A DNA stretch of 63,461 nucleotides, filler included, from Vezdaea acicularis (GCA_026025075.1; 3 parts of 3 records of this genome joined end to end with filler, not necessarily neighbours in it), one strand, 5' to 3'; positions 38,121-63,461 are shown, numbered from the whole stretch's first letter. Translations and numbers: made by a program. Notes: generated by a model from the letters alone, not told the origin.

Positions 38121-39045
38121 GGTAGATAAGGGTTCTAGAGCGGTAGGAAATCCTTCAACGGAGCGGGAACGTTCTCTCTAAAATATTGGAAGTATTGGTT
38201 GCGTTGGGAAGTGCATATGAATCGACCAAGGCGCCACCAGAATCGGTCGAAGCTAACTGCAAGCTAGTGGAAACCTATCCACAACAGTCAGCACGTCCGG
38301 GAAGATGCCTGCTGCAGCCAACATGTGCGCAACGGGAAAGTGACAGAAACGAAGCTCCGTAGATTTGGCGTCTGTCATCCCTCACACTGCTCTGTCGCAC
38401 GCCTATTTAATATGCGAGTTGACGAATCGGCTATTTCGAAGCCTAAATTATTTAGAACTGGCCAATCAAAATCATTTTGTCACGTGAGCCCCTTTATTCG
38501 TCATCCTAAGCCTCAGCAGGGTCCTTTCTGAGGCCTACGCTGAAGCTGTTCGGCGTAAGAGCACCACCGTGCTCTGCAGATGATGGATGCGAACGATTGT
38601 TGTGATAGTATCAATTGTCATTTGCATTGAGAATCGAACGTTTCCATGGGTATAGTCGCGGAGATGCGGCGTAAATCAAGCTTTTTTGCCCAGCCGCTAT
38701 TCATGTGCCCGGGCAAACACCGAGGAGATCTGCCCGCCTCCGCATTTTTACCCCCCTCGTCACCTACTCGGTTCCTTCTCAACACCACGGATCAAGAGCC
38801 CTCGCCAGTGTTCGATCATCTCCCTCCATGTATCTGTGCAGCTCTGATGTCCATGACATTTGCTCACGCGTGCTCAAAGACATCCGAAGTCCCTAAGGGC
38901 TTTAGAGTTCACGTCTTCACATCGTCGTGACGCAGCGAACGGGTGGAAGGCGGCGAAGAGTTCCGCATGCCTGAGACGCCAATATGTGTAGGTCACTGAA
39001 TTATGGGAGAATTGAAAAGCTGCTAACCTTTTGGCATATGTTCAG

Positions 39046-41011
39046 CCGTTGACAGTATCAATGTCTATGTGCGCATCATTCCGAACGCCGATATCACCAA
39101 TGATACGACCGACTATCGCGTTGATGTACGTTTTATCTCTGGAAGCGTTTCTGTTTGTAAAGAAATGCCTTTTTGCGTCTGCAATCAGCAACGCATCCGA
39201 ACGAACAAGCAGACTAACACCGAAATCATCCCACAGTCGGCATACTCGTTCGCCCTTGATATCACCGATGACCTCCAGACTCTCTCCACCAATTCGGCGC
39301 CTCCTGGTGACCTAAATCAAGGTCTCCTATATGTCCCTGATCTCCTCTATGGCGATCCTTGTATCAACGCATCACGACCGTACATACCGGCGAACGTCAC
39401 AAGACAGGCCAACCTTCCACCCACCAATGACTATGCACTTATCGCTTTAGCCCCTTGGATATCCCGGAACTGCACTCTGGGATACCTGGCAGCAGCGAGA
39501 AGAGATCCGGCGAGGGCTTTCATCTTCTACCTCACAAATCGAGACTCAGATGACGAGGACCCACCGCCGATCAGCGATCCTGCTTGGTCCCTTCAAGATG
39601 GAGGCAGTTGGAAGTCCGCGAACAAGTACCCAGTGTACGCGATTTCTTCACACCGCGGCGGCATGCTTATGCACCAGCTGAGCGCATACTCTGGAAACAT
39701 GACCAATGTGCCATATGGCCATGAATTAACGGAAATATACCAAGACTCGCGTGATTATGCGCGGTTATATACCGAAATCAGAATAAGTAGGTGCTCGCCT
39801 TCTCATTTCTTGATCCCCAAAACAAGGTCAAACAACCACCTACAAAGCTTATTCCCCGACACGTTTTGGTGGCTCGTAGGAATGCTAACGTTATATTATC
39901 ATAGGTTCTGGAACATTTCCAGGTCTTTGGGCGTTCCTTCTCATTGTGCTTGGGGTTTTGATAGTGGTTATCATTGGCGTGTCCCTTCTCATGCGCTGGA
40001 TTCAGCATCGGCGACGCCAGGTCCTTAGGCAACGCATTGCCAGTGGAGAAGTTGACCTTGAAGCGCTTGGTATCAAGCGGATCACGGTGCCTCAGGAACA
40101 CCTGAATAATTTTCCGTTGTTTATTTACATTGCGGATCCAAACCGGCCAGAGAGCTCTGCCAGCTCACATTCTATGGGTGAGCATCGAAAGGGCCAGCCC
40201 CAACAAGACAATAGGAAATCTAGCGAGAATGTGGAAGCTCTACGGTCTGAAAAAGACGAGAAATCACATGGTCTGCCTTCTGTGGGACAGGACCATCAGG
40301 ACTTGGGTGGCATCCAGCTTCACGACCTCCAACACCGAGAGCTATCATTTGCGCAGTACACCTGTCCGATTTGCTTAGACGAGTTTGTCTCTCACAAGAC
40401 AGCCCTCCGCGAGCTCCCCTGCGGCCACGCATTCCACCCCGGATGTGTGGATAGCTTTCTTACGGATAGCAGTAGCTTATGTCCGATGTGCAAGAAGAGC
40501 GTCCTACCAAGAGGGTACTGTCCGCCCAAGATCACCAACGTCATGGTACGGCGAGAACGGATCATTCGCCGAATGAGGGAGAGGGTTGTGGTTGAGGATG
40601 ACGGGGCCCATCCTTTCAACCCCACTCACCGACGGCCCTCCATCCTCCGTGCGGGACTTGGCTGGCCAATTTCACCGCAACCGGTGAGAATAGCGAGGAC
40701 AGCAAGCACAATTGCCCGGCCAGGGCAACGCTCTGAAGAAGAGCCCGTAGGTGCTGGTATGAGTACCGTGTCCGTACTGATATCGTCTGTACCAGAGGAG
40801 AACTCGGAAGCACGACGGGCTTGGGCTCGGCGAAGGGCGAATGCAATGCTCGGCATCAGCAGGACGGTGGAGGAGGAAGAGCAAGAAGCTGCCGCGAGGA
40901 CACCTGCATGTAAGTTGTTTTTCCTGCTAGTTCTTGTGAATGAGATGGTGGCCTCTAACGATCTTCACAGGGCGAAAGGTGCTCGCGGCAGTGTTTCCCG
41001 GGTTCCATTGA
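39046..41011 (+). CDS. Membrane-anchored RING-H2 E3 ubiquitin ligase (first exon unresolved)
   Basis: Luminal domain GLLYVPDL..IALAPW, TM segment, GEVDLEALGIKRITVP, RING-H2 CPICLDEF..LPCGHAFHPGCVD..CPMCK; last exon AWRKVLAAVFPGFH*. Confidence 0.82.
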
Positions 41012-42665: not shown

Positions 42666-45600
42666 TTACTCCTGGGCCACCTGGTATAACGCCATCCGTC
42701 CATCCTCGTCTTTGGCCTCAAGGTCTGCCCCCTTCTCTACCAGCAGCTGTACCACCGCCTCATGCCCCTTCGAGACTGCCCAGAACAACGCCGTCCGTCC
42801 ATCCTTGTCTTTGACCTCAACGTCTGCCCCCTTCTCTACCAGCAGCTGTATCACTGCCTGATGCCTATTCCAGGCTGCCCGGTGCAACGCCGCCCGTCCA
42901 TACTTGTCTTTGACATCAACGTCTGCCCCCTTCTCTACCAGCAGCTGTACCATCGCCTCATGCCCATTCGAGGCTGCCCAATGCAACGCCGTCTCTCCAT
43001 ACTTGTCTTTGACCTCAACGTCTGCCCCCTTCTCTACCAGCAGCTGTACCACCGCCTCATGCCCATTTGAGGCTGCCCAATGCAACGCCGTCTCTCCATA
43101 CTTGTCTTTGACCTCAACGTCTGCCCCCTTCTCTACCAGCAGCTGTACCACCGCCTCATGCCTATCCAAGGCTGCCCAATGCAACGCCGTCTGTCCATGC
43201 TTGTCTTTGACGTCAACGTCTGCCCCCTTCTCTACCAGCAACTGTACCACCGCCTCATGCCCCTTCGAGGCTGCCCAGAACAACGCCATCCGTCCATCCT
43301 TGTCTTTGACGTCAACGTCTGCCCCCTTCTCTACCAGCAGCTGTACTATCGCCTCACGCCCCTTCGAGGCTGCCCGGTGCAACGCCGTCTGTCCATCCTT
43401 GTCTTTGACCTCAACGTCTGCCCCCTTCTCTACCAGCAGCTGTACCACCGCCTCATGCCCCTTCGAGGCTGCCCGGTGCAACGCCGTCTGTCCATCCTTG
43501 TCTTTGACCTCAACGTCTGCCCCCTTCTCTACCAGCAACCGTACTACCGCCTCATGCCTATTCCGGACTGCCCAGGACAACGCCGCCCGTCCATGCTTGT
43601 CTTTGACGTCAACGTCTGCCCCCTTCTCTACCAGCAGCCGTACCACCGCCTCATGCCTATTCCGGACTGCCCAGGACAACGCCGCCCGTCCATACTTGTC
43701 TTTGACCTCAACATCTGCCCCCTTCTCTACCAGCAGCTGTACCATCGCCTCATGCCCATTTGAGGCTGCGCAATGCAATGCCGTCTCTCCATGCTTGTCT
43801 TTGATCTCAAAGTCTGCCCCCTTCTCTACCAGCAGCCGTACCACCACCTCATGCCCATTCGAGGCTGCCCAGGACAACGCCGTCCGTCCATACTCGTCTT
43901 TGGCCTCAACGTCTGCCCCATTGTCTAAAAGTAATTGAGTTACTGTCTTTAGACCAGAGGAAGCAGCAACATGCAGTTCAGAGACTTCCTTAGGAAAAAT
44001 TTGGCTGTATCCGGGAACCCGGTATATGGGGCTACGCGTGACTTGAATGTAGCAAGAAATCCGAGACTTATCCTTGAGGAACCTCAAAATTAACTTCTGA
44101 AGAGCATGCTCCATATCTCCACATGTATGCTCACTCCAGTATCGAGCAGCATACCTTAACAGAGGGTTCTCCCGCAGTCGAACCTCTAGATCGTCATCAG
44201 TGGAACAAAACCCCTTTGCAAATGCATCAAATAGGAGATAAGTGAGACAGTGTTTTGCAATTTCCATTTGCGCATCAGGAAACCGATCCTCTCGAATGCG
44301 CTTAAAGAAATCCTGGGCAGTGTAGTGGACCAGGCGTACTAAACCGCTCTCTTGTTCAATAGAGACTAAGCCAGCACAAATCGACAAGAGTATCTCCCCA
44401 TCAACTATGTCGCCTTCATCCAATTTTGATGCTTCTGGCATAATAGCTAAAGCATGTTGAAGCTCAATCATAGACAATGGGGTCTTGGCATATGTGATCC
44501 AGTATAAGACACGTGTTGCAAGCTTTCGATCCTCTACATTTTGGTTGTCAATCCTCTGCAAAGCTTCCTCATATGTATTATTGAGACCATCTGGAAGATG
44601 TTCTGTTGCTTGGACTACTGCATTCCGGGTCTGTTTGTTTGCTATCATATCCATATGGAGTCGAGCAAGTAGAAACCTAGAAGAAAGTTAGGACGATCGC
44701 TATATAGTAAGGCATCGTGAAGCAATAGAATGTGAGAAGGGCATGTGAAAGCTAGGCTGACCTACATTCCTCTGACATTTTTTATTATAGCATCTGTAAT
44801 TTTTTCTCTCACCGTTGGCTCTGCTTTGACTATTTTAGCCAACCGAGATGTTTGAGATATTCTTGCTTCTAGATATTTATACACATCTTCGTCTTTTGCA
44901 GTGATTTCTAGCTTTTCTCGGTTTGGAAAGGTATCTTCGATATGTATACTAGGCCGTGAAGTGATCATTAAGCCCACAGTGTCAGCCAGTACTCCTAAGC
45001 TGTCAAGTAGATCTCTGCGAGAGCATTCTAGACACTCATCTAGAGCATCAACAACTATAAAAGCTCTTGGAAAACTTAAAACTGCAGACTGAAGAGCTTT
45101 TGACATCTCTTGAAGCGTTGGTCGTGTAGTCTTCTTCAAGTGTTGATCAAACATAGGTTCAAGACCATCGAGAAGGGAAGGCATCTGCTGGGCTAATTGT
45201 TTGAGCAAACTTGAAACGAGATTGACGGAAGACTGTTCGGTCTGGTCTTTGTAGTTGCAATATATAAATGCGACTGCATTGTCTGTCTCTGCAAAGGTTG
45301 TTTGTAGATAATCTATTGCAGTCGAGCTAGGAGTGGACGTTGAATTAGCTGGCCATAAGCTAAGGAAGACACCCAGGGATCATACGCAAGGACAGTTTTG
45401 CCAGCACCAGCTATCACCACCTAGTCAATCAGGAGGCATCAGGCAACGAGCTCGACTTACGCATTCCTGGGCACCACAGGATTCTTGGGGCACCGTGCAG
45501 CCACCCTATGAAGCTTTTAGACTTTAACAACCATTCGCCTGTCCCTTTCTGCCGTGTACGGAGGATATCGTTTTGTGTCTGGGGAAAATTGAGAGGAGAA

Positions 45601-47173: not shown

Positions 47174-47437
47174 TGTAAGGATGTAGCGTACGAGCAGGGA
47201 GCGGCTAGGATCAATCCGAGTAAGTGATGCGGGACACAGTGGGCACGCAGTAGACACGCAGGCGGCACGCAATAGATGATAGAATGGTTTAGTAGTCAAT
47301 AGTAAGTATCTATACGATTGAATACTAGGGAGCTATTCTACAGCGCTTCCCCGCTTTGCCATATGACGGTGGCCACGTGACGCAGGAGTAGCGCAGGCTT
47401 GCCGTAGCAGCGGTCGCGGGAAGGCGGGTTCATAACA
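47174..47437 (-). mobile_element. Solo LTR of the same family as the full-length retrotransposon (slightly diverged)
   Basis: Reverse complement reads TGTTATGAACC..GGCAAGCCTGCGCTAC..GCGGGGAAGCGCTGTAGAATAGCTCC..GCTACATCCTTACA; flanks GGTGG / GTTGC do not form a clean TSD. Confidence 0.93.
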
Positions 47438-47717
47438 GTTGCTGCCTCTTAAATTTACAGAGAGCCTCCTTCTATACCATAATAGGACCCTTCAACTTAC
47501 AACACCACCATCATGCTTTTTCCACCTCTTAAACATAAAGAACGATTAGATATAGATCTTTGAGTTTTATCACGATGCTAAAAAGTTATCCTTAGTGTTG
47601 TGGCGGCCAGAGCGCGCTATGCCATACACTATCGCCACATAGGCTGATACCTCCTCCAATTAAGCGATCAAGTACGACTAATAACGAATCACTAGAGACA
47701 GTCCAACCGTATATGAA

Positions 47718-50700
47718 TCATTTCCGCGGCCAACTGCGAAGAACAATCTCTACCGGCTTGACACGATCTCCCCGCTCCCCCAACACCGTAACAAGCATCT
47801 GCTCTCGCCAAGCTAGTCGCACAAGCTCTTCAATCTTTTCAGCACGGGTATGGAAGCGATGCTCATCACCGTGCTCCGTGATAAAGATAAAATCGTGAAA
47901 TTCGCCAAACCGATCATAAACCAGCCCTTCAACCTTGCCTGTGTGCTCCTCATGGTGAGATCCGTGTGGCCCATGATGACCTTCGTGACTTCCATGTCCA
48001 CCACCATGGCCACCACCGTGACCTCCCCCGCCGATTGGCCCTATCGGCGGTGCGCCATACGGCGATGGCACCACCGTGATTGGATTCCCGCCCAACCCAG
48101 TAAGCCGACCAGAGACGTACTCAATGTACCGCAGGAAAACCGGATACCATCGATTTGTCGGCTTCATCAGGCTCAATCTCCACTTAAAAATTGCCAGAAC
48201 ATCCTTCTCGCGAGGCAAGATCTGCGCCGGCTTCTGAACCGGAATTGTCACCGCAAAGGTGCCTGTCATATACCGCCAATTGCTGACTTCCGGGCCGCGG
48301 TATTCCCCAGCCAATGCCAGCTTCGGCACCTCAGGCGGAGGAGCTGTGACCACGGCCTGCTTGGTGGTCAGGCGCTTCACAACGGCAGTGAACTCCTGGC
48401 CTGCCACAACGCCCTGTGGGAGGTCAATGGTGAACAAGCCAGCAAAGTTCTGGGACAAAGCACTGGATGGTACGGGAATGTACGACTGCTTCCCCTGTCC
48501 GACGTTATGAATGCGGAGAGTGTTTGCGTCCGGCGCGGTCAGCTCGTGCGTCGGGTACAGGTAGCTTGCAAGCGCAATCACGTCGGTTGCTTGTACTTGT
48601 GGCCAGTATATCATTGCGGTGCTTCCCTCGGGGACGTTGCCCCAGTCAATGACAATCTCGTCTGGCAAGTTCAAGAGATTGCTCGCGCGCGTAATGTCGA
48701 ATGGCGGGCTGGGCCGCATGTCAAACGTCTGGGGCACGCGATGGGCGCTCGGCGGGCCAGGATTGTCAGATGAAGTGATTTGCAGGTTGCGCTGGGCTAG
48801 CTGCGCGCTGTTCTGGGTGCTGGTGCCGGTCGGAATCGGAGTGCCCGAGTAGTTTATTTCGGCTACAAGACAGTGATGCGTGCCCTTGAGAAGACTGGGA
48901 ACCGGGTTCGGGCCAATAGTGTTGGACGTGTTGTAGACGTTCAGATAGCAGCCAAAGTAAGTCCAGATGCCGTTGGCACTGTTGGATTGAATAAGTCGGT
49001 TGTTGGGGCCGCCAGGAATATAATCCAGTTCAGCTACAAAGTCCGCATTGGCTTCGTAGTTGCCAGTAGCAAAGAATGGAATGGTGAGTGGGTCATCCTC
49101 GTTAAGAATCTTGGGAGTGGCTGTGACTGTGCCGAGCGGGCCGGTAGCATATGTGCTCCCTGGCTGAAAATCCGTGTCATTGGAGGCGGTGAGAAACAAC
49201 CGGAAAAAGGTGTTGACACTTGCTGTTCCTACACCTGATACGCGGACTCTCGCAATAGCAAAATTGTAGTTGGAGTAATGTTGATCGGTGTTGGGGTCGA
49301 TTGTATAAGGAAGAACCGATGAATCCCCGGTTAGGCCTCCGGACAATGGCAGCAGTGTGGTAAAAGGATCAGATCCAGTAGGATCGCTAAAGTTGCCGTT
49401 GAGATATATGATCAGTCTTTTTATGTAGTCGTAAGCACCTCTAGTGTCATAGAGATTGCTACTCTGAGTCTGCCAAGTCGGGCCGTTGCCGTTGAGAGAC
49501 ACTGGTGTACTATCCATCTCTGGTACCACGGTCAATACCCGTAGGTCTTGGCTCAGCCAGAAGGGGTTCTGGACTTGCTGGCTCACGTTAAGGAAGAAAG
49601 GATCTGCACCACCGACAAGCTCAAATTGAGCAGTGGCAGGCACTGTTCCAAAGCCCGCAACAGAAGTCTGGACTGAAGCGCTCAATGAGAGCGTAGACGT
49701 TGATCCAACAGCGGGAAAGGTCGGGTTCGGTGGATAGATGATGTCGTACGGAAAAGTGATGCGTTGCAAGGAATTGTCACTGCCACCCAGTTCTTGTATT
49801 GGCCACGGATTGACAGCGCTGGGTGCAATTTTTATTCCAGGAATTTGTGAGACAAATGTGCCTTGAAAGCTCGAGGTTGGGTTCTTCGTCACCTGTGCGA
49901 GCGAAAATCCATCTAGAACGAGTGAAAACGCCTGGGTCCAGGTTGAGTTTTGGCTGACTTCGAGGCTGCCATACGTGTTTTTGGATACGGAAAAGAAAAA
50001 CGAGGGTGAAATTGCACCGCCAGCGAGTAACTGGATGAGCTTGGTTCCATCGAGCACGCCCAAGCCAGTCAAACAGTTCCAAGGGGCGAGTGATTGATAC
50101 CCCTTGGTCGTATTGAAGATTGGGAGACTGCCCGGCGTCGACTGACCCGCCAAAAATGTAAAGGCGTTTGTGACCCCGGGCCCGTCTGCAATGTTGTGGA
50201 ACAGGCCGGCCGAGGTGGAGTTTGCGTAGAGAGTTGGGTTCAGATAGCCTACATTAAACCCAAGGGTGGCATTGATACGCGCAATGAGCGCCGCGTACAG
50301 CGGCGCGGCCTCGCTTGTCCCTGATAGCCCAATCGGCTCGGGCAAGCCGTATACGGTGATAGGGTAGCCCTGGGCAAAGCCAGCAATGTCTGGAATGCCG
50401 CGGCCTCGAGTTGTGCCGTCATTTATCGATGGCGGAACGGTGAAGCCAGGGCTGAAGCCTTGCTGCCAGCTGGGTACCGGGAATACTAGATTCCCGCTCG
50501 GGTCCTTGAAGGTGCTGATACCGCCTCCCGTCAAACCACGAGTTGTTTCATCAGGTTTTCGTTCTGCGTTCCAGGTTTCTTCGAGAAACGTATTATTGGC
50601 GGTTGTAGTGTCTGCCCAGGTGACATTGGATGTCTTGCTACCGCCGCAAGCAGTCACCCACGGGTCAGTGCTGGGATAGAGAACATGTGCGTTGCCATCG

Positions 50701-51869
50701 CCAGTTGGGCCGGTGACATTGCCGATACCCTTGACGTTTATGGTAATATCTTTAAAGAAACCGTTAGTACCCTGGTCTCCAGACGCAGAGAAGATGGTGA
50801 TTCCTGCTTCTGCAGCTTGCCGGAAAATGCTGGACATAGTTTGGAGATGCCCCGCTGTCCATGTGTCTTCATTGGAAGACCAACTATTTGACAGTACCGA
50901 AGGCTCAGGTTGCCCCTTATCAGGAAGTACAGCGGCTAGGAAGGCCTCCAGCCAGCCAGACACAGACAATGGGGCAAAGTAGCAAGCGATAGTTGCTCCG
51001 CTTGCAACGGTCCCGGCTACATCAATATCTAGAACCACTTCTCCATCAGAGATGCTTTGATTTTCAGCATTGCCCGCAAGTTTGTTGGCTCCTCCAGATA
51101 GAATGATCGTGGTCAGGTTGATGAGGGGCAGGCTCAGCGGAGGTACGTAACTGGCATTTACTGTGTTGGTGAAGGCATCAACGTCTGTAGGTCGTCCGGC
51201 GTTGATGGTGACTCCGCCACCGAACTCCAATACGCCGATAGTCTGCTCCGAAATGTTGGGCGGATTTGGAGGAAAGTTGTGCATATTTGCAACGTCAAGC
51301 GGTGTCAATGAACTGCCACTTGGCCCCAGATTGGCACCGGGGCCGCCAACGAGCCGACTCAAACGTCGATAAGCAGACCGCCGATTGTCCAGGCCAAAGA
51401 CACCTTCTATGAGATGGTGAACGTCCTTGGGAACATAGATGTGGCCCTCGCGCCCTCGGTAATGCTTCTGTACCTCATCTTCAGTCTCGTACTTGCCGAG
51501 ATTAACGGCAAAGGCATGGTTAATTTTGCTGACTGGGCCAGTCACAATGACAAGACGTCTGGCGGCATGAAGCTGCTCCACTTCGAGCTCCTTGGAGCGA
51601 GCAAAGGCAGCGACATGCTCCAGATCTGCCTGTGCAGCACCGTACTTTTCTCCTAGCTCTTTGCGGGACAGGAATTTGCGATGACCGGGCCTGGTGCGCT
51701 CCCAGTGAGAGTGATCGGGAGCGGGAGCTGCGCCGGGACAAAGTCGAATCCTGATCAGAACCCGGACTATTTCATGGGGGTCGGCATCGCTGACACGCTG
51801 AGCCCCTAGTGCCTTGGTCCGCTCACTGCCAGGCACAGCATGGTAGTTGTGTGGAGTGTGAGAAGCCAT
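47718..51869 (-). CDS. Intronless 1383-aa S53 sedolisin/kumamolisin-like peptidase with pro-domain and ~760-aa uncharacterised C-terminal extension; no signal peptide
   Basis: Pro-domain (FLSRKELGEKYGA, INHAFAV, GVFGLDNR); catalytic GEVVLDID, ASGDQG, GRGIPDIAG, SGTSEAAP; Ca-site WNCLTGLG. Confidence 0.88.
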   Translation of the reverse strand: MASHTPHNYHAVPGSERTKALGAQRVSDADPHEIVRVLIRIRLCPGAAPAPDHSHWERTRPGHRKFLSRKELGEKYGAAQADLEHVAAFARSKELEVEQLHAARRLVIVTGPVSKINHAFAVNLGKYETEDEVQKHYRGREGHIYVPKDVHHLIEGVFGLDNRRSAYRRLSRLVGGPGANLGPSGSSLTPLDVANMHNFPPNPPNISEQTIGVLEFGGGVTINAGRPTDVDAFTNTVNASYVPPLSLPLINLTTIILSGGANKLAGNAENQSISDGEVVLDIDVAGTVASGATIACYFAPLSVSGWLEAFLAAVLPDKGQPEPSVLSNSWSSNEDTWTAGHLQTMSSIFRQAAEAGITIFSASGDQGTNGFFKDITINVKGIGNVTGPTGDGNAHVLYPSTDPWVTACGGSKTSNVTWADTTTANNTFLEETWNAERKPDETTRGLTGGGISTFKDPSGNLVFPVPSWQQGFSPGFTVPPSINDGTTRGRGIPDIAGFAQGYPITVYGLPEPIGLSGTSEAAPLYAALIARINATLGFNVGYLNPTLYANSTSAGLFHNIADGPGVTNAFTFLAGQSTPGSLPIFNTTKGYQSLAPWNCLTGLGVLDGTKLIQLLAGGAISPSFFFSVSKNTYGSLEVSQNSTWTQAFSLVLDGFSLAQVTKNPTSSFQGTFVSQIPGIKIAPSAVNPWPIQELGGSDNSLQRITFPYDIIYPPNPTFPAVGSTSTLSLSASVQTSVAGFGTVPATAQFELVGGADPFFLNVSQQVQNPFWLSQDLRVLTVVPEMDSTPVSLNGNGPTWQTQSSNLYDTRGAYDYIKRLIIYLNGNFSDPTGSDPFTTLLPLSGGLTGDSSVLPYTIDPNTDQHYSNYNFAIARVRVSGVGTASVNTFFRLFLTASNDTDFQPGSTYATGPLGTVTATPKILNEDDPLTIPFFATGNYEANADFVAELDYIPGGPNNRLIQSNSANGIWTYFGCYLNVYNTSNTIGPNPVPSLLKGTHHCLVAEINYSGTPIPTGTSTQNSAQLAQRNLQITSSDNPGPPSAHRVPQTFDMRPSPPFDITRASNLLNLPDEIVIDWGNVPEGSTAMIYWPQVQATDVIALASYLYPTHELTAPDANTLRIHNVGQGKQSYIPVPSSALSQNFAGLFTIDLPQGVVAGQEFTAVVKRLTTKQAVVTAPPPEVPKLALAGEYRGPEVSNWRYMTGTFAVTIPVQKPAQILPREKDVLAIFKWRLSLMKPTNRWYPVFLRYIEYVSGRLTGLGGNPITVVPSPYGAPPIGPIGGGGHGGGHGGGHGSHEGHHGPHGSHHEEHTGKVEGLVYDRFGEFHDFIFITEHGDEHRFHTRAEKIEELVRLAWREQMLVTVLGERGDRVKPVEIVLRSWPRK

Positions 51870-52231
51870 GGTTGAATCAACCAGGTGCAGAGGAGATTTG
51901 GGGAAAATTTAAAATTTAAAGACAAATCGCAATGGCACTATATGGTGCTCTGAATGACCAAACTGTGAATACCAGTGAACGTGGATGGCGGAAACACTGC
52001 AGTTGAGCGAGGCTGGGAGGAGCTGAAATACGGTGAAAAAAGCAATGAGGAAACTTTCTCTCAGACTCAAGTCTGGAAATTGCATGGTACCATGACCAGG
52101 GCCATAAGCGGGGTAAAGCGGACGCCACCCTATCAAAGAGCTTACAGCAATGCCTTTTACCATCACACCACCATTCCACCAGTTGACGGGAGGAGGAAAG
52201 CCCTTGGTTACATGCAAGCCAAGACCTGTTG

Positions 52232-53505: not shown

Positions 53506-53749
53506 TGACCAGGATCTTTGATCGCTTGCTTTGGAGGTACCAGTCCATGTGGCGACATCGCATGATATAGCACAGCCTAGTCGCCACAGGGCTGACAATA
53601 TCTTCTTAGCATCGTAGGGAGACTTAGAAATCTATTTTTAACTGTTCTATGTATTTAGAAAGGGAAAAGTGCTTGACAGTAGTGATATAAGTCGAAGGGC
53701 TTGATTACACTATGAAGGGATGTTCCCCGCAAATCAGGTGCATGACAAC

Positions 53750-54014
53750 TGTCATGAACCTGCCCCCCCCGTGACCTCTCCTACGGCAAGCCTGCGCTAC
53801 CCCTGCGTCACGTGACCACCGTCATATGGCAAAGCGGGGAAGCGCTGTAGAATAGCTCCTTAGTATTCAATCGTATAGAGACTTACTATTGACTACTAAA
53901 CCATTCTATCATCTATTGCGTGCCGCCTGCGTGTCTGCTGCGTGCCCACTGCGTCCCCCATCACTTATCCGGATTGATCCTAGCCGCTCCCTGCTCGTAC
54001 GCTACATCCTTACA
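53750..54014 (+). repeat. 5' LTR (265 bp)
   Basis: TGTCATGAACC...CATCCTTACA; identical by eye to 61567-61831. Confidence 0.97.
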
Positions 54015-54017
54015 ATT

Positions 54018-54027
54018 ATTGAATACT
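54018..54027 (+). promoter_or_regulatory. Primer-binding site of self-priming (Tf1-like) type
   Basis: ATTGAATACT just after the 5' LTR is the reverse complement of AGTATTCAAT at 53862-53871 inside the LTR; no TGG tRNA-type PBS. Confidence 0.7.
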
Positions 54028-54057
54028 CTACCCTTGAGCAGCCGGCAGCAAGAGATC

Positions 54058-55251
54058 ATGACGGACACGACCCCTATGCCGACACGCCAGGCAGACGCAG
54101 GCTCCACGCAGGGTGAAGCATCGTCGGGTACTGCTCCTATCGCAAGCGCCGCATTGGAGGAGCAGGAGGGGCGCAGGACCCCCGCATCCGATGAAGAAAT
54201 GCCGGATCCTGAAGAACGAGAGGAAAAGATTGCACAAATGCAGAGGGAGGCGTATGAGGTGGAACGGAAGCAGGAGTATCGTCGTCTGCTACGTTCCAAG
54301 GAAAATGGCTATCTTTCTACGCAGTCCAACTCCTTCTCTCGCCGGGACGACTCAGGGGAGCCGCAGTTTAACCGCAGGGGCGTAAGCCCCTTGCAAGCGG
54401 AGGTCGAAGCAAAGCGCAGGAAGACTATCCGTGATGAGGAGAAGGATATACCTCTCCCCAGCGTCAAGGAGTACAAGGGCGAGAGCTACAAGGAATTCAG
54501 AGACTGGGAGAGGCAGTTGAAGGTTTGTTTTGAGACAAGACCTACCGCGTTCGATCGGGACTCCCAGAAGGTCAGGTTCGCGCGGGGGAAACTCACGGGC
54601 ACCGCAGGCGAGGCTTGGACTAGACTTGACCAAGGCAAAAGCTATAGTTGGGAAGAATTTATCCAGTTCTTGAAGAAGCAGATCACCTCAGATGCCGGCG
54701 CAGCCCTTGGGGATCTTACTGGCTGGTGCAACTGCAAGCAGGGGACCCGCACGGTCAGCGCAATCGTCAACGAGATCGATGACTTTGAGTCACGAATGGA
54801 GAAGTTTCCCGAAACCACTCGAATCAACATCCTCGTACTGGCGATGCGAGCATCGCTCCGCAAGGAGCTCATGAGGAACGGAGTACTCCCTGCTACGCGG
54901 GAAGCTGCCATTGCTCAGGCAATGACCCTTGAGACGGCTGAGCAGGAGGACCGCAGGCGCGACGCAGGGGCTCCGCTGGGGAGACAACCTTCTTCATGGA
55001 AATGGAAGGCTTCAGAGAAGAACACTACCAAGCCAGTCCCTTACCCAGCCTCAGGTGCCAACGTGGAGCCACCACGCAGTGCCTATGCAACTGAGTCGTT
55101 CAGTGCGCGGGTGCCATCGTCACCAAACATGGAGCGCAAGAAGAATGCTACTTGCCACTATTGTAACAGGAAGGGGCACTATCAGGCTGAGTGTCGCAAG
55201 ATGGCCGCAGAGACCACGCAGGCGCGGCAAGTAAAAGAGTCCGGGTCGTAG
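54058..55251 (+). CDS. gag: Retrotransposon Gag with CCHC zinc knuckle
   Basis: KVRFARGKLTGTAGEAW, WEEFIQFL, KQGTRTV, CHYCNRKGHYQAEC; first ATG after the LTR at 54058. Confidence 0.92.
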   Translation: MTDTTPMPTRQADAGSTQGEASSGTAPIASAALEEQEGRRTPASDEEMPDPEEREEKIAQMQREAYEVERKQEYRRLLRSKENGYLSTQSNSFSRRDDSGEPQFNRRGVSPLQAEVEAKRRKTIRDEEKDIPLPSVKEYKGESYKEFRDWERQLKVCFETRPTAFDRDSQKVRFARGKLTGTAGEAWTRLDQGKSYSWEEFIQFLKKQITSDAGAALGDLTGWCNCKQGTRTVSAIVNEIDDFESRMEKFPETTRINILVLAMRASLRKELMRNGVLPATREAAIAQAMTLETAEQEDRRRDAGAPLGRQPSSWKWKASEKNTTKPVPYPASGANVEPPRSAYATESFSARVPSSPNMERKKNATCHYCNRKGHYQAECRKMAAETTQARQVKESGS

Positions 55252-58200
55252 ACGTTGCCTCCGTCCTACTGACCCGCAATTCCAAGAAGGGAGCTCACAC
55301 CATGTTCATTTCCGTTGAGATACGCAGGGGTAACGCACCCGCCACGATCCTGAGAGCGCTGATTGACTCAGGGGCTTCGCTGAACTTCATCTCGCAGCTG
55401 AAGGTTAAGGAGTTGGGTCTCACGGGTAACGCAGACGCACCGCAGGGGATTCGCAGTCTTAGCGGGCACATCATCTCTACGTTTCAAACCCATGACCTCG
55501 AGACTCACATGGTAGACAGTAATGGCGAAGCCCGGCAAATGAAGGATGCCTACGTCGCCGCAAGTTTCACTGGCTGCGATCTCATACTAGGGATAACGTG
55601 GCTACAGGAACGAGATCCGGATATCCGATGGGCGGCCGAGACGCTGGTTTGGAGGAAGAACCTCAGCCCGAATACGCCGAACGCTGTGGAGATACTCTCT
55701 CCAATTGCCTTCGCGGCTTGCATAGCCGAGGAAGGTTTGAGGCCATACCACATAACGGCCACGCAAGTGCCACGCACGGGTACCGCAGGCGGCCTATTTG
55801 GAACAACCACGGAGGCTCCCCTGCCTAAGGAGTACGCCGACTTCGAGCGAGTGTTCTCTGAGGAGGGCGCCAATGAATTGGCGCCCCATGGACCTCAAGA
55901 TCATGAGATTGATACTCAAGGGAAACAGCCTCCATTCGGCCCGTTATACCCGCTATCAAATCTGGAGCTCAAGGCTCTGCGAGAATACATCAGCGACAAC
56001 CTTGCGAGGGGTTTTATACACCCCAGCACCTCGCCTGCGGGGGCACCCATCATCTTCGTTAAAAAGAAGGATGGTACCCTAAGGCTTTGCGTGGACTATA
56101 GGGGGCTAAACAAGATCACCCTGAAGAATCGCTATCCTTTGCCCCTTATCGGCGAGGCGCTAGATCGACTTGTGGGCGCCAAGGTCTATAGCAAGCTGGA
56201 TATTCGTTCAGCGTATAATCTCATACGGATAAAAGAGGGCGACGAGTGGAAGACTGCGTTCCGCACGCGGTACGGCCACTTTGAGTACAAAGTAATGCCT
56301 TTCGGCCTAGCAAATGCTCCAGCTACGTTCCAAAGCTATATTAACTACGTTCTACGCGACTTCCTAGATGTGTTTTGCATAGCGTACCTGGACGACATCT
56401 TGATATTCTCAGACAACCGAGACGAGCACACGCAGCAGGTACGCAGGGTCCTCGCACGTCTCTCTAAGCATCGACTATTTGCAAGACTAGATAAGTGCGA
56501 GTTCTACGTGAACCAGGTTGGCTTCGTAGGATTCGTCGTACAACCGGACGGCGTGGCCATGGAGCAGAGCCGGGTCGCGACGATCCGAGACTGGCCTCTG
56601 CCAAAGACTCATCGGGACATACAAGTCTTCTTAGGGTTTGCAAACTTCTACCGCAGGTTCATCGCAGGCTACTCGCAGGTGGCTCGACCCCTGAACGAGC
56701 TGCTGCGGGACTCAGTAAAGGGGAAGTTTCCAGGACGAACCTTAGTGATGTCTGAAGACGCCATACGGGCGTTTGAGGAGCTCAAGCAGTGCTTTGTGAC
56801 TGCGCCAGTCCTGCGGCACTACGACCCGGAGTTGCACATTCAGCTGGAAACCGATGCGTCTAAGTACGCCATCGCCGGAATCCTTTCGCAGCGAGACGCA
56901 GTAGAGGCGCAGGCGCATTGGCGGCCGGTCGCCTATTGGTCTCGCGGGCTCAAGGAGGCAGAACTGAACTACGGGGTCGGAGACGCAGAGATGCTGGCTA
57001 TCGTCGAAGCATGTAAACAGTGGCGCCACTACCTCGAAGGGGCCACGCATGCAGTACGCTGTATCACGGATCATGCGAACTTGACTACGTTCCTAAGCAC
57101 CAAGACCCTCAGGGGCAAATACGCCCGCTGGTGGGAGATACTATCGGCACTAGACCTAGATATCTCCTATCGAGCAGGGAAACTCAACCCAGCGGATGCA
57201 CCATCTCGGCGACCGGACTACGAGGAGCGAGCCCGGCGTGAAGAAGCCGCCGCTCTCGAGCACACAACCGGCAACGCCACGGGAGAGTCGACGCCCGTAG
57301 ACGTCGCATGCGTGACTGCTGCGGCCTTCCTGCGGCGTGACCTCAGAGAGATAGCATCTGATGAAGGACCTATACGGTCAAGCGTAGCAGGTCCCAACGC
57401 TACATCCTCCCTTCGCGTGTGGGCCACCTTCCGGCTTGCTAGAAGCGGCCGTCCATTGAAGGTGGTGCCTATCGGCGAAGTGCGAGAGAGCGCAAGAAGA
57501 GAGAGCGCATACGCAGACCCCACGCAGGAGTTTCGCGCGCTTATCTCAAAGCTTCAGAAAGACGATGCGTTCGCACAAGAATTGATCGCCTTCCTGCTGG
57601 CCTCCGAAGGACGCCGGGTAGCCGGCGCCGGGGGTGCACGGGGGGACGCAGGCGTACCGCAGGGGGTACCGCCTGGAGGCGAGGATCCCAAGTGGAAGGC
57701 TCATCAGGGGCTTCTATTCCACGATATTCAGATATACCTTCCACCTCCCTCGAGGGGCGAGGCAATGCGAAAGAACCACGATGATCCCCATGCGGGCCAC
57801 TTTGGATATCTTCGCACTTATGAGACAATAAGAAGAAAGTTTTATTGGCCAGGCATGTCAAAGGAGATCAAGCAGTATGTACGCACATGCAACGCATGTG
57901 CGCGCATCAAGACCACAAGGCATCAGCCTTACGGGGAGCTTCAGTCGCTACCAGCCCCTAAGGGCGTGTGGAAAGATCTTACCATGGACTTCATCACTGA
58001 CCTACCGCCTGCGGGACGCAGGGGTACCGCATATGATGCAATTTTAGTGGTTGTCGATCGCCACTCTAAGATGGCACGGTACATCCCCACGCGAAAGAGT
58101 TTGGATGCTGCGGGCCTTGCAGAGCTGTTCTACGAGTACATTTGGAGGGACTACGGGGTTCCAACGTCCATAGTATCAGATCGAGGAACCCAGTTTACCT

Positions 58201-59105
58201 CGAACTTCTGGTCTACCTTCTGCTTCCAGCTGGGTATTCGGCGTCGCCTGAGTACCGCATTTCACCCGCAGACGGACGGACAGACAGAACGACAGAACCA
58301 AACCCTCGAGCAGTACCTCCGTAGCTATATCAACTACCAGCAGGACGATTGGGTCGACTGGCTGGGAAGCGCGGAGTTTGCATATAATAACAGCGTCCAG
58401 GCCACGACAAAGCATACCCCCTTTTTCGCAGTTAGGGGCGATCACCCCAATACGGGCGATGAGATTCCGCGAGATGACTGCGACATGCCTGCGGTGGCCG
58501 TGCGTGTCGCAGCCCTTGTCGAGCTACGAGAGGAGATGGCAAGGCATTGGCAAGCCGCAGTAATGAAACAAGCGCAGTACTACGATTCCAATCACAAGCC
58601 TATGGATTATGCCATTGACGACAAGGTCTGGCTCTCCGGGAAGAACATCCGTACGGCGAGACCCTCTAAGAAGCTAGACTACAAGTACTATGGGCCATAT
58701 CGCATTAAGGACGTTGTAGGGGAGCAGGCGTACCGCCTAGACCTCCCTGTAGGATCCAAGATACATCCTGTGTTCCATGTGTCGCTGCTGGAACCCTTCA
58801 AAGAAGGCGAAGGACGCAGCGACGCGGGTGCGCTACCCCTGCGTGTCGCCGGTGACGACAGTCAAACTATCGGCGCAATCCTCAACAGCAAGCTACGCTA
58901 TGGTAGATTGCAGTACTTAGTATCCTACGAAGACAGGACGGAGGCCGAGAATCGATGGATCGCAGCGGATGAGATTGGAGCGACGCAGGCGCTGCGCAAC
59001 ATGGGCACAGCATTCCATGAGCGTTACCCCCTCAGGGCTGATAGGCTGACAGAAGATAAATATCAGAGAGGCCCTAGGAAAAAACGCAAACGTACAGCGA
59101 GATGA
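55191..59105 (+). CDS. pol: Retrotransposon Pol (protease, RT, RNase H, integrase, chromodomain), -1 frame relative to gag
   Basis: LIDSGAS, LRLCVDYRGLN, MPFGLANAP, YLDD, ETDAS, HDDPHAGH..CNAC, TMDFITDLP, IVSDRG, GQTER, GPY, LQYLVSYED chromodomain. Confidence 0.97.
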   Translation: MSQDGRRDHAGAASKRVRVVDVASVLLTRNSKKGAHTMFISVEIRRGNAPATILRALIDSGASLNFISQLKVKELGLTGNADAPQGIRSLSGHIISTFQTHDLETHMVDSNGEARQMKDAYVAASFTGCDLILGITWLQERDPDIRWAAETLVWRKNLSPNTPNAVEILSPIAFAACIAEEGLRPYHITATQVPRTGTAGGLFGTTTEAPLPKEYADFERVFSEEGANELAPHGPQDHEIDTQGKQPPFGPLYPLSNLELKALREYISDNLARGFIHPSTSPAGAPIIFVKKKDGTLRLCVDYRGLNKITLKNRYPLPLIGEALDRLVGAKVYSKLDIRSAYNLIRIKEGDEWKTAFRTRYGHFEYKVMPFGLANAPATFQSYINYVLRDFLDVFCIAYLDDILIFSDNRDEHTQQVRRVLARLSKHRLFARLDKCEFYVNQVGFVGFVVQPDGVAMEQSRVATIRDWPLPKTHRDIQVFLGFANFYRRFIAGYSQVARPLNELLRDSVKGKFPGRTLVMSEDAIRAFEELKQCFVTAPVLRHYDPELHIQLETDASKYAIAGILSQRDAVEAQAHWRPVAYWSRGLKEAELNYGVGDAEMLAIVEACKQWRHYLEGATHAVRCITDHANLTTFLSTKTLRGKYARWWEILSALDLDISYRAGKLNPADAPSRRPDYEERARREEAAALEHTTGNATGESTPVDVACVTAAAFLRRDLREIASDEGPIRSSVAGPNATSSLRVWATFRLARSGRPLKVVPIGEVRESARRESAYADPTQEFRALISKLQKDDAFAQELIAFLLASEGRRVAGAGGARGDAGVPQGVPPGGEDPKWKAHQGLLFHDIQIYLPPPSRGEAMRKNHDDPHAGHFGYLRTYETIRRKFYWPGMSKEIKQYVRTCNACARIKTTRHQPYGELQSLPAPKGVWKDLTMDFITDLPPAGRRGTAYDAILVVVDRHSKMARYIPTRKSLDAAGLAELFYEYIWRDYGVPTSIVSDRGTQFTSNFWSTFCFQLGIRRRLSTAFHPQTDGQTERQNQTLEQYLRSYINYQQDDWVDWLGSAEFAYNNSVQATTKHTPFFAVRGDHPNTGDEIPRDDCDMPAVAVRVAALVELREEMARHWQAAVMKQAQYYDSNHKPMDYAIDDKVWLSGKNIRTARPSKKLDYKYYGPYRIKDVVGEQAYRLDLPVGSKIHPVFHVSLLEPFKEGEGRSDAGALPLRVAGDDSQTIGAILNSKLRYGRLQYLVSYEDRTEAENRWIAADEIGATQALRNMGTAFHERYPLRADRLTEDKYQRGPRKKRKRTAR

Positions 59106-59349
59106 CGCGATATCCACGCAGGCCCCGCGCCAGCTCCACGTCCTATTCTCCCCAACACCCATAGCTTCTTCCTTAAGGGGTTGAAGCGTCAACGGGACAC
59201 GAGGAAGCTACAACGCGGATGTAGGCGGTGAGGCACGGGAGTTACAAACAGGCGGGAGGAGAAAGAAGCAGTCTATTGAGCTAGCTAAGTAAGTTAAGCA
59301 ACCTAAGGAGTCGGAGCTATCGGGACCCTTGGAACGAGGCATCCGCTAT

Positions 59350-61087
59350 CTAAGCAAATGTTGTCCACCTCTGGTGCTCCTCAACGGGGTGCTGCTCGAT
59401 CCCCGCAGCGCCCTCCGTCGATCCTTCGTCCTCCCAGTCCTCCTCGTTCTCTTCCTCCTCTACCCCCTTGTCCTCCTTGTCCTTCTCGCCCTTCTCCTCG
59501 CCTTCCTCGGCCACCTCGACATCGTCCCCAGGAACTTCCCCTCCGTCGGAAAGAGGGCGCTCCTCGGCGGATTCCCACGCAGGCGAGCCGCCGTCGTCCC
59601 CTTCAAGGGCATCAGGAGAGTTTTCCGTTAGTACGGGGGAAGGGGGAGCGGAGCGACGCCTCTTGGCCACGCGAGCTGCAGCCTGTCGCCCAAAGACAAC
59701 GGCAGAAAGGTCAGAAAGCGCAGGAGAGGCGGAGCGACGGCGCTTGGACCCTCGAGTGTTGTCCTTGTCGGCGGCAGCGAGCCCCTGGCGGCCCTCGGGC
59801 GCTGTATTATGGTCGGTCTCGGCATCGTCGTCGGTCTCACGGAAGACAAATTCCTCGGATATGGCGGCCCTGCCCTTGCCCTTGCTCTTGCCCTTGCTTT
59901 TGACCTTTCCCTTACCTTTGTTCTTGCCCTTAAGGAGAGCAGCGAGCCTCTTGCGAGCCCCTGGCGGGATAGGGACGGCGCCCTCCAAGGAAGAGGTTGA
60001 GTCAGAGACAAGCTCCTTGCTCTTGCTGAGGCCCTTCGCCTTAGTCTTACCTTTTCCAGCGGCTTCAACAACGGACCCCTTGCGGCCCTTGCGCCCAACC
60101 TCCACGGCGACCCCCTCCTCTTCGCTCTCCGGCAAATCCTCCACGCCCTCCAAGCTGGACTCGGAGTCGGTACTCAAGCCCCCAGAAGAAAGTTCCATCG
60201 CGGCGTCCCGAGAAGAGCCAAGGAAGGCGGAAAACCCTTTCCTCGCGGGAGGAGCGCCGGCGGGAGAAGAGCGCTGACGTCCGACCGGAAGCTGAGAAGA
60301 GGAACCGGCGGCAGAAGGGCTCACAAAGAGGCCACTGGTAGAAGAACCGGCAAGAGGCGGCGGAATGACCGTGGCGAAGTCATCAGGGTCGACGACTTGC
60401 CCAAGAGCCAGGGAAGGGAGTTTGGACTAGCAATAGGTTAGCAGGCGTGCCGCAGGAGACAGGAAAGAGGAATACAAAGGGGGCAAGAGGGCAGAACTTA
60501 CGTTATAGCGCTCGATATCTACCAACGCTTCAAGAGCGCTGGCAAGGCGCTCGATTGCTTTCTGCTTGGCCCGAGCGGCATCTTCTACCTTGTTTCCAGT
60601 GATGTTGACTCGGCGCCACGCCATCACCTCGATGGCATAGCGGCGTATAAGTTTCGTGAAAGCCTTCTGGGCCGGCTTATAGCCGGGGCACTTCTTGGCT
60701 ACGAAAAGGTTAGTATAGCAACGCAGGAGGGGAGCAGGGGCGTACCAGCGCCAGGAAAGGAGTTTCGGAGCGCCGAAAGCTGGTCAGCGTAGCCCAAGAG
60801 CTGGTTCGTCACAAGGTTGAATGCCTCGGGGATCTGCTAGGTTAGCAAGTCGCGCAGGAGCGACGCAGGACACTCACATCATGGCAACGATGTTTATTGC
60901 CCTGGCATCTCACGCACTTGTGGAATGCTGCCGTGCGTTCGCATCGCAGCCCGGGCTCAAGAGGTAGATGCTGTATGCATCGCAGACAGGTTCGACGAGA
61001 AAGCGGCGGCGTACCGGCGAGGCGCGGCGGAGGCACACCAGCGACAAAGGGCCGTTGCAGCGATGGACCAGGCTGAATAGACGACAT
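59350..61087 (-). CDS. Antisense spliced cargo gene inside the retrotransposon: exons 61087-60878, 60833-60746, 60698-60502, 60426-59350; ~523-aa Cys6 zinc-cluster-like nuclear protein
   Basis: Three introns with GTGAGT/GTACGC/GTAAGT donors, CTAAC branch sites and YAG acceptors; all junctions keep frame (210+88+197+1077 = 1572 nt). Confidence 0.82.
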
Positions 61088-61551
61088 TATATTGAAGTAG
61101 TAAAGGACGGCCGGAACGTCCGAAGAAGACGCGGAAGTGGAAAGACTCGCCGGAGCGCTATAGTCGTGGAGACTGCGTGGCAAGTGAAAGTTCGCGATGC
61201 AAGGACGGCAAGGTGGTGGGTGGGGTATAACCCTAGGGCACGTGTCACCACGCAACCCCCCGATACGCCTTACAGCGTATCGCGGAATAATAGGAAAAGA
61301 AGCCCGTAGTACACTACAGGAACACAGGCGGCAGGCCTGCGATGCGCATACGCGGCCTCAGTGGCACAACGGAGGCCACCGTCCACGCAGGGACCATGAT
61401 GCCTAAGTCAACGAGGAGACACCGGTGTAGGTATAGGATTGAGTAGCTCAAGGAGCGCGCCTGCGCGACTCCTGCGCTACGCCTGCACGCCTATTGGGAT
61501 ACCCGAAACAGAAAAGGGGTTGGATTCAGGGGCTACGGGGACCGCAGCTAT

Positions 61552-61562
61552 GGAGGAGGGGG
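61552..61562 (+). promoter_or_regulatory. Polypurine tract
   Basis: GGAGGAGGGGG a few nt upstream of the 3' LTR. Confidence 0.85.
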
Positions 61563-61566
61563 TAAT

Positions 61567-61831
61567 TGTCATGAACCTGCCCCCCCCGTGACCTCTCCTA
61601 CGGCAAGCCTGCGCTACCCCTGCGTCACGTGACCACCGTCATATGGCAAAGCGGGGAAGCGCTGTAGAATAGCTCCTTAGTATTCAATCGTATAGAGACT
61701 TACTATTGACTACTAAACCATTCTATCATCTATTGCGTGCCGCCTGCGTGTCTGCTGCGTGCCCACTGCGTCCCCCATCACTTATCCGGATTGATCCTAG
61801 CCGCTCCCTGCTCGTACGCTACATCCTTACA
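61567..61831 (+). repeat. 3' LTR (265 bp)
   Basis: Identical by eye to 53750-54014; followed by TSD ACAAC. Confidence 0.97.
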
Positions 61832-62009
61832 ACAACAATGCAATTGTATTTTTCCAGCGCAGGAATCAAAAACGAAGATATAGTGTCCGAGTCAAAAGGC
61901 ATCCTATCGCAATATCAGTATCCGAATTAAGTTTAGCGTAATTTCTCTAGATGGTTGTCTTACTTTGAAAGCTGTTTATTTTTGCGATCACTTGTGATAT
62001 TGGCCTGTC

Positions 62010-62170
62010 TGTCACGAACGTACCCATCCCGTGATCGCAGCCTGCGCTATGCCTGCGCTAGGCTTGAGTCACGTGACGCACCGTAGTAGATAGGAATGCG
62101 GGGAAGCGCTGAGGCATGGCTCCCCAGCATTCAATCCACAATCCACATAGACGTATTTATTGACTGCTGC
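62010..62170 (+). mobile_element. Diverged related LTR relic
   Basis: TGTCACGAAC start, GCCTGCGCTA, GTCACGTGA, GCGGGGAAGCGCTG, CATTCAATC, TATTGACT in the same order as in the intact LTR. Confidence 0.7.
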
Positions 62171-63079: not shown

Positions 63080-63324
63080 CAGTGGGTGGCGGAAAGTTTG
63101 CACACCCCTCGCGAAAATAAATACTGCTTGCACCAATACGATGGCAGCAACATGACAGAATTAGTACCTTATCAGCTTAGTTCCTTACGTATGTCCCATA
63201 GCAGCGCAAGTGATGCCTTTAAACTCTCTTGAAAGTGCGTTGTGGCAGCTTAATTGTCGGAATTAACTGGTCGTCGGGACTCCAAATTTTTTGAAGGGGT
63301 GTGCAAACTTTCCGCCACCCACTG
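63080..63324. mobile_element. 245-bp Tc1/mariner-type MITE (family B) with perfect 30-bp TIRs
   Basis: TA|CAGTGGGTGGCGGAAAGTTTGCACACCCCT ... AGGGGTGTGCAAACTTTCCGCCACCCACTG; right TA is replaced by an LTR start. Confidence 0.9.
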
Positions 63325-63461
63325 TCATGATCTCGTCCTCCCGTGACCGCTTCTACGGCAAGCCTGCGCTACCCCTGCGTCACGTGATCACCGTCATATA
63401 GCAAAGCGGGGAAGCACTGTAGAATAGCTCCCTAGTATTCAATCGTATAGATACTTACTAT
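63323..63461 (+). mobile_element. Partial LTR of the same family running off the window end
   Basis: TGTCATGA..CTACGGCAAGCCTGCGCTACCCCTGCGTCACGTGA..TAGTATTCAATCGTATAGA. Confidence 0.92.

Follow-up and report, generated by a model that had tools for sequence, protein, structure and literature searches.

A putative antisense, intron-containing gene for a probably nuclear, cysteine-rich protein in an apparently autonomous Ty3/gypsy element of Vezdaea acicularis

Introduction

Antisense additional open reading frames (aORFs) between pol and the 3' long terminal repeat (LTR) have been described for the retrotransposons Grande, RIRE2, Retand and PvRetro13, and their functions are not known according to the same review (PMC7264820). 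The product of Grande GENE23 is presented as nuclear and the gene as having its own promoter (PMC7264820; PMC11963269), and antisense TRP28 ORFs are present in 97% of the Retand clusters (PMC11963269). Antisense transcripts might also work via double-stranded RNA (dsRNA), and transduced genes are listed as mostly sense-oriented (PMC7264820). A fungal example is the brtn gene of Boty, which is likewise antisense and located between pol and the 3' LTR (PMC8365987, PMC7264820, PMC4227169); the gag-pol product of Boty-like elements has a CHROMO domain (PMC8365987, PMC4227169), and BRTN has served as a BLAST subject (PMC5987419). Here we report on a stretch of 63,461 nt from Vezdaea acicularis (GCA_026025075.1; three parts joined with filler), a lichen-associated member of the Pezizomycotina. 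In this stretch, hereafter the window, a Ty3/gypsy element (53750-61831) harbors a four-exon frame on its minus strand (59350-61087), which on balance probably represents a genuine accessory gene, protein-coding and carried by an apparently autonomous element, in antisense position between pol and the polypurine tract.

A preliminary description of the locus had interpreted the element as a chromovirus with an antisense gene of the zinc-cluster type and had implied that a fungal precedent was absent. The latter is superseded by the antisense gene brtn, which in Boty, a fungal element with a chromodomain, already occupies the place between pol and the 3' LTR.

Structure and splice signals of the antisense gene

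The four minus-strand exons of the spacer downstream of pol join into a frame of 1,572 nt, i.e. 523 codons plus stop. Exon 1 (60878-61087, 210 nt) comprises 70 codons from the ATG at 61087 and contains the motif C-x2-C-x11-C-x8-C-x2-C-x6-C (residues 34-68; 60884-60988). It is followed by exon 2 (60746-60833, 88 nt), exon 3 (60502-60698, 197 nt), which encodes a helical segment, and exon 4 (59350-60426, 358 codons plus stop). The tail specified by exon 4 is predicted at low confidence; some of its blocks are conserved, and it contains KGK runs, the KRRRS motif twice and, at its end, an acidic stretch. The intervening introns have lengths of 44 nt (60834-60877, GTGAGT..GCTAAC..CAG, phase 0), 47 nt (60699-60745, GTACGC..ACTAAC..TAG, phase 1) and 75 nt (60427-60501, GTAAGT..GCTAAC..TAG, phase 0); all three combine a GT donor with a CTAAC branch site and a YAG acceptor. 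The reading of the gene requires these three short spliceosomal introns; if it is left unspliced, the frame is closed by stop codons within intron 1 and intron 3 (ORFs 60842-61357 and 60427-60783). The exon/intron model of the preliminary description with its phases 0, 1, 0 and about 523 amino acids was reproduced in full, and the cysteine spacing, the KGK runs, both KRRRS motifs and the acidic stretch all reappeared in our translation.

The gene is located between the pol stop codon at 59105 and the polypurine tract at 61552, which is the position of an aORF-3R. It lies on the minus strand opposite the plus-strand gag-pol, in agreement with the proposed convergent arrangement, and its 3' end is 245 nt away from the pol stop.

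The occurrence of splice signals was assessed with the pattern GT[AG][ACT]G[TC]..[AGT]CT[AG]AC..YAG, which was built post hoc from the observed introns. In the 2.46-kb spacer it has four matches on the minus strand, namely at the three introns and at one alternative donor, and none on the plus strand; neither strand of the 5-kb gag-pol region contains a match. Three or more matches were obtained in only 3 of 2,000 mononucleotide shuffles of the spacer.

Paralogues and selection on the frame

A protein search with exon 4, in which 8,000 candidates were scored, retrieved three proteins, namely P0001 (462 aa, 100% identity), P0002 (453 aa, 72%) and P0003 (344 aa, 66%). P0001 and P0002 are NCBI hypothetical proteins of a metagenome-assembled genome of V. 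acicularis, and P0003 originates from a Logan/ENA assembly. The profile of these three proteins over exons 2-4 was searched against 1,835,955,588 representative proteins and returned only P0002, P0003 and a new protein, P0004 (155 aa, E 4e-9), whose source name is again Vezdaea acicularis. P0004 was also the sole relative among 1,015 candidates when a profile was compared with proteins of 38-272 aa. None of 73 candidates was found at E<=10 in the search of exon 1 against longer proteins, and profile scans of metagenome, viral and genome contig sets for loci of the antisense protein yielded no relative.

P0001 and P0002 are collinear with the window protein over junctions 2 and 3, and a paralogue at 72-80% identity thus keeps introns 2 and 3 in place. 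P0004 is collinear with exons 1, 2 and 3 at 46-54% identity. In exon 1, 38 of the 70 residues are identical (54%), including all six cysteines and three histidines, and both the spacing and the junction CH[DE]|IP of intron 1 are retained; the conservation of the six cysteines refers to this single comparison. Taken as predicted proteins, the diverged paralogues are conserved in their exon junctions, in the six cysteines and in blocks of the tail.

The public models of P0001 and P0002 have first exons that are short and different. In P0001, translation starts at the ATG at 60944 and the alternative donor GTGCGT (60912-60917, minus strand) opens an intron of 84 nt at 60917, whereby the cysteine-rich exon is dropped. 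The intron of 44 nt may be too short for the gene predictor. Because P0004 retains exon 1 with its six cysteines and junction 1, we favor the first exon of the preliminary description over the public model, and its gene model including the cysteine-rich exon is backed by the independent paralogous models P0001, P0002 and P0004. The case illustrates that public gene models can miss an informative first exon.

Several features of the paralogues bear on selection. Exon 4 is open in both P0002 (72%) and P0003 (66%); when unconstrained substitution was simulated, only 19 runs out of 1,000 at 72% identity and 12 out of 1,000 at 66% left it open, figures that overstate the case if many decayed copies exist, because protein databases list open frames only. 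Between P0001 and P0002, the helical domain has 8 differing positions out of 95 and the tail has 91 out of 358 (Fisher p 2.3e-4), an unevenness that could also stem from recombination between copies. The invariant columns of the tail are clustered, and their observed variance was reached by none of 5,000 permutations. The conserved cysteines and junctions point, together with the uneven conservation, to selection acting on the protein.

The KGK runs of the tail are based on imperfect repeats of 12 nt, of the CCTTGC type when read on the plus strand, at 59868-59931 and 60015-60054. Indels among P0001, P0002 and P0003 coincide with the same repeats.

Domains and predicted fold of the encoded protein

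No Pfam family was found for exon 1, exon 3 or P0004, and the rows obtained for exon 4 are weak and compositional. The zinc-cluster family was of particular relevance. Canonical Zn2Cys6 proteins have the spacing C-x2-C-x6-C-x5-12-C-x2-C-x6-8-C with a first loop of six residues. The antisense protein resembles them in the succession of an N-terminal module of six cysteines, helices and an acidic tail, and the second half of its module (C-x2-C-x6-C) matches the spacing as it is generally given. It differs in its first loop, which consists of 11 non-basic residues in the window protein and in P0004 alike, in the lack of a Pfam match (Zn_clus, PF00172: none for exon 1 at E<=1, none for P0004 at E<=10) and in the lack of a PDB sequence match. 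The absence of Zn_clus and the non-basic loop of 11 residues mean that the protein cannot be filed as Zn2Cys6; the proposed membership in the zinc-cluster family is hence not supported, and the accompanying remark that loop 1 is expanded proved correct.

The AlphaFold model of P0004, based on a four-row alignment, has a mean predicted local distance difference test (pLDDT) score of 63.6 and contains helices at residues 73-91, 96-125 and 133-152. The same three helices are predicted for P0001, in which the tail has a pLDDT <50 except for a short helix at 259-273 and another at 341-363; the latter is flanked by the two conserved KRRRS motifs. The helical segment and the disordered tail that had been proposed, with structure prediction named as the check, are thus reflected by three helices and a low-confidence tail. 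A Foldseek comparison of the P0004 model with the PDB gave nothing at E<=0.001, a VIA wide fold search of this model reached a best Z of 7.8 for generic three-helix bundles, which is within the stated background, and PDB sequence searches returned nothing meaningful. The nearest clusters in the ESM Atlas consist of hypothetical proteins from Ascomycota (0.92 when the whole protein and 0.86 when the cysteine part is considered), which we regard as leads only, and no Zn_clus cluster is among the nearest. The homodimer prediction for residues 28-155 of P0004 scored 0.00 versus a mark of 0.32 and carries no weight either way. Since the family and fold searches gave generic matches or none, we infer nuclear localization and metal binding from the motifs, which suggest that the cysteine-rich antisense protein is probably nuclear.

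Anatomy of the host element

The insertion at 53750-61831 is a young and structurally complete Ty3/gypsy element. It is bordered by the target-site duplication (TSD) ACAAC, which was read directly at 53745-53749 and as the identical five bases following the 3' LTR (61832-61836). The 5' LTR (53750-54014, 265 nt, TG...CA) and the 3' LTR (61567-61831, 265 nt), both on the plus strand, are 100% identical. The gag frame (54058-55251, plus strand) encodes 397 aa with weak matches to a CCHC knuckle and to Retrotrans_gag. It overlaps by 61 nt (55191-55251) with pol (55191-59105, plus strand), an open frame of 1,304 aa in the -1 frame with protease, reverse transcriptase (RT), RNase H, integrase and SH3_Tf2-1. 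Pfam matches above the cut-offs are RVT_1 (residues 290-449), RT_RNaseH (545-652), Integrase_H2C2 (851-908), rve (931-1026) and SH3_Tf2-1 (1144-1203), and those to protease (residues 54-139) fall short of the cut-offs. The resulting order protease-RT-RNase H-integrase is that of Ty3/gypsy elements.

A segment resembling a primer-binding site (PBS) is situated 3 nt past the 5' LTR (54018-54027, plus strand). It forms a perfect inverted repeat of 10 nt with the LTR-internal segment AGTATTCAAT (53862-53871, plus strand), a candidate self-primer. This complementarity would fit self-priming instead of the use of a tRNA primer and presumably resembles that of Tf1-type self-priming elements. The LTR segment complementary to the PBS, TAGTATTCAATC, shows conservation among the remaining LTR copies of the window as well. 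At the opposite end, the polypurine tract (PPT) GGAGGAGGGGG (61552-61562, plus strand, as read from the sequence) terminates 4 nt before the 3' LTR. Paired LTRs, TSD, PBS, PPT and intact reading frames for gag and pol are all present at the sequence level, and the element is apparently autonomous.

From the pol stop at 59105 and the start of the 3' LTR at 61567 follows a spacer of 2,461 nt; the earlier notion of an intact retrotransposon with about 2.4 kb of extra DNA past pol is consistent with this length, the identical LTRs and the TSD. The antisense gene must have moved with the present copy because it is located inside an insertion that has identical LTRs and a TSD, which substantiates the claim that it travels with the element. 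Upstream of the gene, the interval 61088-61551 (minus strand) within the element is by its position a candidate for an own promoter.

Assignment to the chromoviruses is less clear. The C-terminal segment of pol (58875-58982, plus strand) is chromodomain-like, but its match to Chromo (PF00385; 17 bits, E 0.0055) is below the cut-off of 25.1 bits, and scanning of the whole pol or of its last 101 aa gave no PF00385 match. The top PDB sequence matches of this segment are chromobox chromodomain chains with E 0.075 and weaker. Of the original label, the Ty3/gypsy domain order therefore stands, and the chromovirus part is plausible, not established, because the chromodomain match is marginal (17 versus 25.1 bits).

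A pol scan of IMG/VR viral contigs detected 14 distant Ty3/gypsy loci with 31-41% identity. All 14 contigs end no more than 734 nt past the pol stop, at least one of them (L012) being cut within pol and hence uninformative, and in the eight loci that possess terminal repeats the spacer measures 38-514 nt. The antisense protein has no match at E<=1 in any of the 14 loci; two rows at E 3.4 and 6.7 are at chance level. All that these distant loci show is that a long spacer is not a general feature of Ty3/gypsy elements.

The genomic neighborhood of the element

Further LTR copies, belonging to this family or to related ones, are present in the window. A probable solo LTR with 93% identity and without an obvious matching target duplication is located at 47174-47448 (minus strand), an LTR-like segment with 75% identity starts 178 nt past the element (62010-62136), and an LTR with 91% identity in the same orientation as the element runs off the window end (63323-63461). 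The LTR family is multi-copy and the region is an insertion nest. The palindrome GTCACGTGAC (CACGTG core; 53810-53816 and equivalents) and the block GCGGGGAAGCGCTG show no or almost no variation among four LTR copies that elsewhere are only 75-93% identical, and they are candidate regulatory sites of the LTRs. The host genes near the element, at 13561-16764, 42669-44687, 31099-33069 and 47721-51908, include a NACHT/NPHP3-TPR gene, a large ankyrin-repeat gene, a homologue of the transcription-silencing protein Clr2 and a long frame with a pro-kumamolisin activation domain. No Pfam match was obtained for the ORFs at 17509-18531 and 19004-20212 (minus strand) or for that at 39027-40025.

Discussion

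The reading that we prefer is that of an accessory gene of the element. The genomic RNA would correspond to the strand opposite to the gene, so that the intron signals would not be recognized there and the introns would survive reverse transcription. The gene could be expressed from an own promoter in the approximately 460 nt between its ATG and the PPT or from a promoter in the 3' LTR, in both cases convergent to gag-pol. The predicted nuclear product would begin with a proline-rich N-terminal leader, followed by a putative metal-binding Cys6(His3) module and by a segment of three helices; its tail would be long and flexible, contain the two basic KRRRS motifs and end in an acidic stretch. 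Most likely, such a protein would modulate the transcription, the silencing or nuclear steps of its own element, as may be compared with GENE23 of Grande, and retroviral antisense proteins would provide a parallel for a modulating role by analogy only. A more far-reaching proposal is that a Ty3/gypsy lineage of a lichen-associated ascomycete evolved a spliced antisense gene for a zinc-binding nuclear regulator of a family found nowhere else, which would control transcription, silencing or nuclear entry of the element as the counterpart of retroviral antisense proteins; the orientation would permit a multi-intron gene on an element that is reverse-transcribed. We put this forward tentatively, as a possibility that in its entirety is rather doubtful.

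Several observations speak against the preferred reading, and the caveat on the simulation of open frames belongs to them. The public model of the identical protein P0001 has another start and donor and does not contain the cysteine motif. The cysteine region of the P0004 model consists of loops with pLDDT values of 58-76, and the module has no family, fold or structure match in Pfam, the PDB, Foldseek or VIA. Only three relatives were detected among 1.84 billion representatives, and the named ones are all from one species, because of which retention across species is not shown over the long term. The gene is known here from the DNA sequence and from the protein models P0001-P0004, and metal binding, nuclear localization and a regulatory role are deduced from sequence features.

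The interpretation that competes best is that of passive cargo, according to which a host gene, or a copy of it, entered an ancestral element by an event at the DNA level such as illegitimate recombination or nested insertion and has no role for the element. P0002 and P0004 would then be host paralogues. This is unlikely in our view, yet it accounts for several observations: host genes typically have introns, as this gene does, the paralogues, known here as protein models, carry plain hypothetical-protein annotations and one of them is on a 330-kb contig, and room for such a region was found in none of the 14 distant IMG/VR relatives, whose contigs end within 734 nt past pol. However, a conserved host gene should also be found in other ascomycetes, whereas the 1.84 billion representatives contained no homologue beyond the small group described above. 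Moreover, the GC content at third codon positions of the antisense gene (0.655) matches that of gag (0.642) and pol (0.619), the present copy, whose two LTRs are identical, carries the gene intact, and transduced genes are usually sense-oriented according to the review of additional ORFs (PMC7264820). If the paralogues are host genes, the locus would represent one of the rare documented cases in which a retrotransposon captured a gene with introns at the DNA level.

Alternatively, the antisense unit might act as RNA, with convergent transcripts that anneal to the genomic RNA and supply RNA silencing, and with a frame that is secondary or decaying. The short distance of 245 nt between the 3' end of the gene and the pol stop implies that the convergent transcripts would overlap if extended, and regulation based on dsRNA has been discussed for antisense ORFs (PMC7264820). 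We nevertheless consider this explanation quite improbable as a replacement for a protein-coding function, given that the frame is kept at 66-72% identity and that the conserved cysteines, the junctions and the uneven conservation at the protein level indicate selection on the protein; an RNA role is compatible with a protein role and does not exclude it. Finally, chance open frames in GC-rich low-complexity DNA that are linked by fortuitous splice-like motifs and spread by gene predictors would agree with the compositional bias of exon 4, the open frame of 307 aa on its opposite strand and the lack of any Pfam, PDB or fold match, but three frame-restoring introns with full signals on one strand only and a collinear paralogue with 46-54% identity in exons 1-3, in which no cysteine has been lost, make this explanation extremely improbable.

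Antisense accessory genes of LTR retrotransposons are documented without a known function, as stated in the review literature (PMC7264820). The locus described here combines a compact intact element, clear splice signals, a predicted structured N-terminal module whose putative metal ligands are conserved and diverged paralogues for comparison, and would therefore offer a tractable fungal system for the role of such genes.

The closest known system is brtn of Boty. As far as the accounts in the citing papers go, both elements are Ty3/gypsy elements of ascomycetes, and an extra antisense gene between pol and the 3' LTR accompanies gag-pol, which encodes a CHROMO domain in Boty. They differ in their host lineage, and brtn is known here via these citing papers, its original description being reportedly that of Zhao et al. 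(2011, Virology 417:248). No Botrytis or Sclerotinia protein appeared in the searches with the antisense protein, the presence of BRTN in the searched libraries being unconfirmed. In the open full-text literature, subscription papers and supplements aside, no multi-intron antisense gene with a cysteine module was found for fungal retrotransposons.

Grande gene23, RIRE2, the TRP28 ORFs of Retand and ORF2 of PvRetro13 share the position and orientation of the gene as well as an unusually long region between pol and the 3' LTR, and the plant aORF-3R proteins are described as having no clear database relatives, as is the case for the window protein. In contrast, these are elements of plants, belong mostly to non-chromovirus lineages and encode unrelated proteins, and the word "intron" is absent from the main text of the two accounts on which the comparison is based (PMC7264820, PMC11963269), whereas the window gene needs three introns. 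HBZ of human T-cell leukemia virus type 1 (HTLV-1) is similar in being a minus-strand gene near the 3' LTR with a nuclear product (PMC11963269, PMC7264820, PMC10186651), as is predicted for the window protein, but it has no sequence relation to the latter and serves as an analogy only. The layout of the Vezdaea element is hence already known, including from a fungal element of the same broad type, and what is new is the unrelated, intron-containing gene for a cysteine-rich protein that occupies this position.

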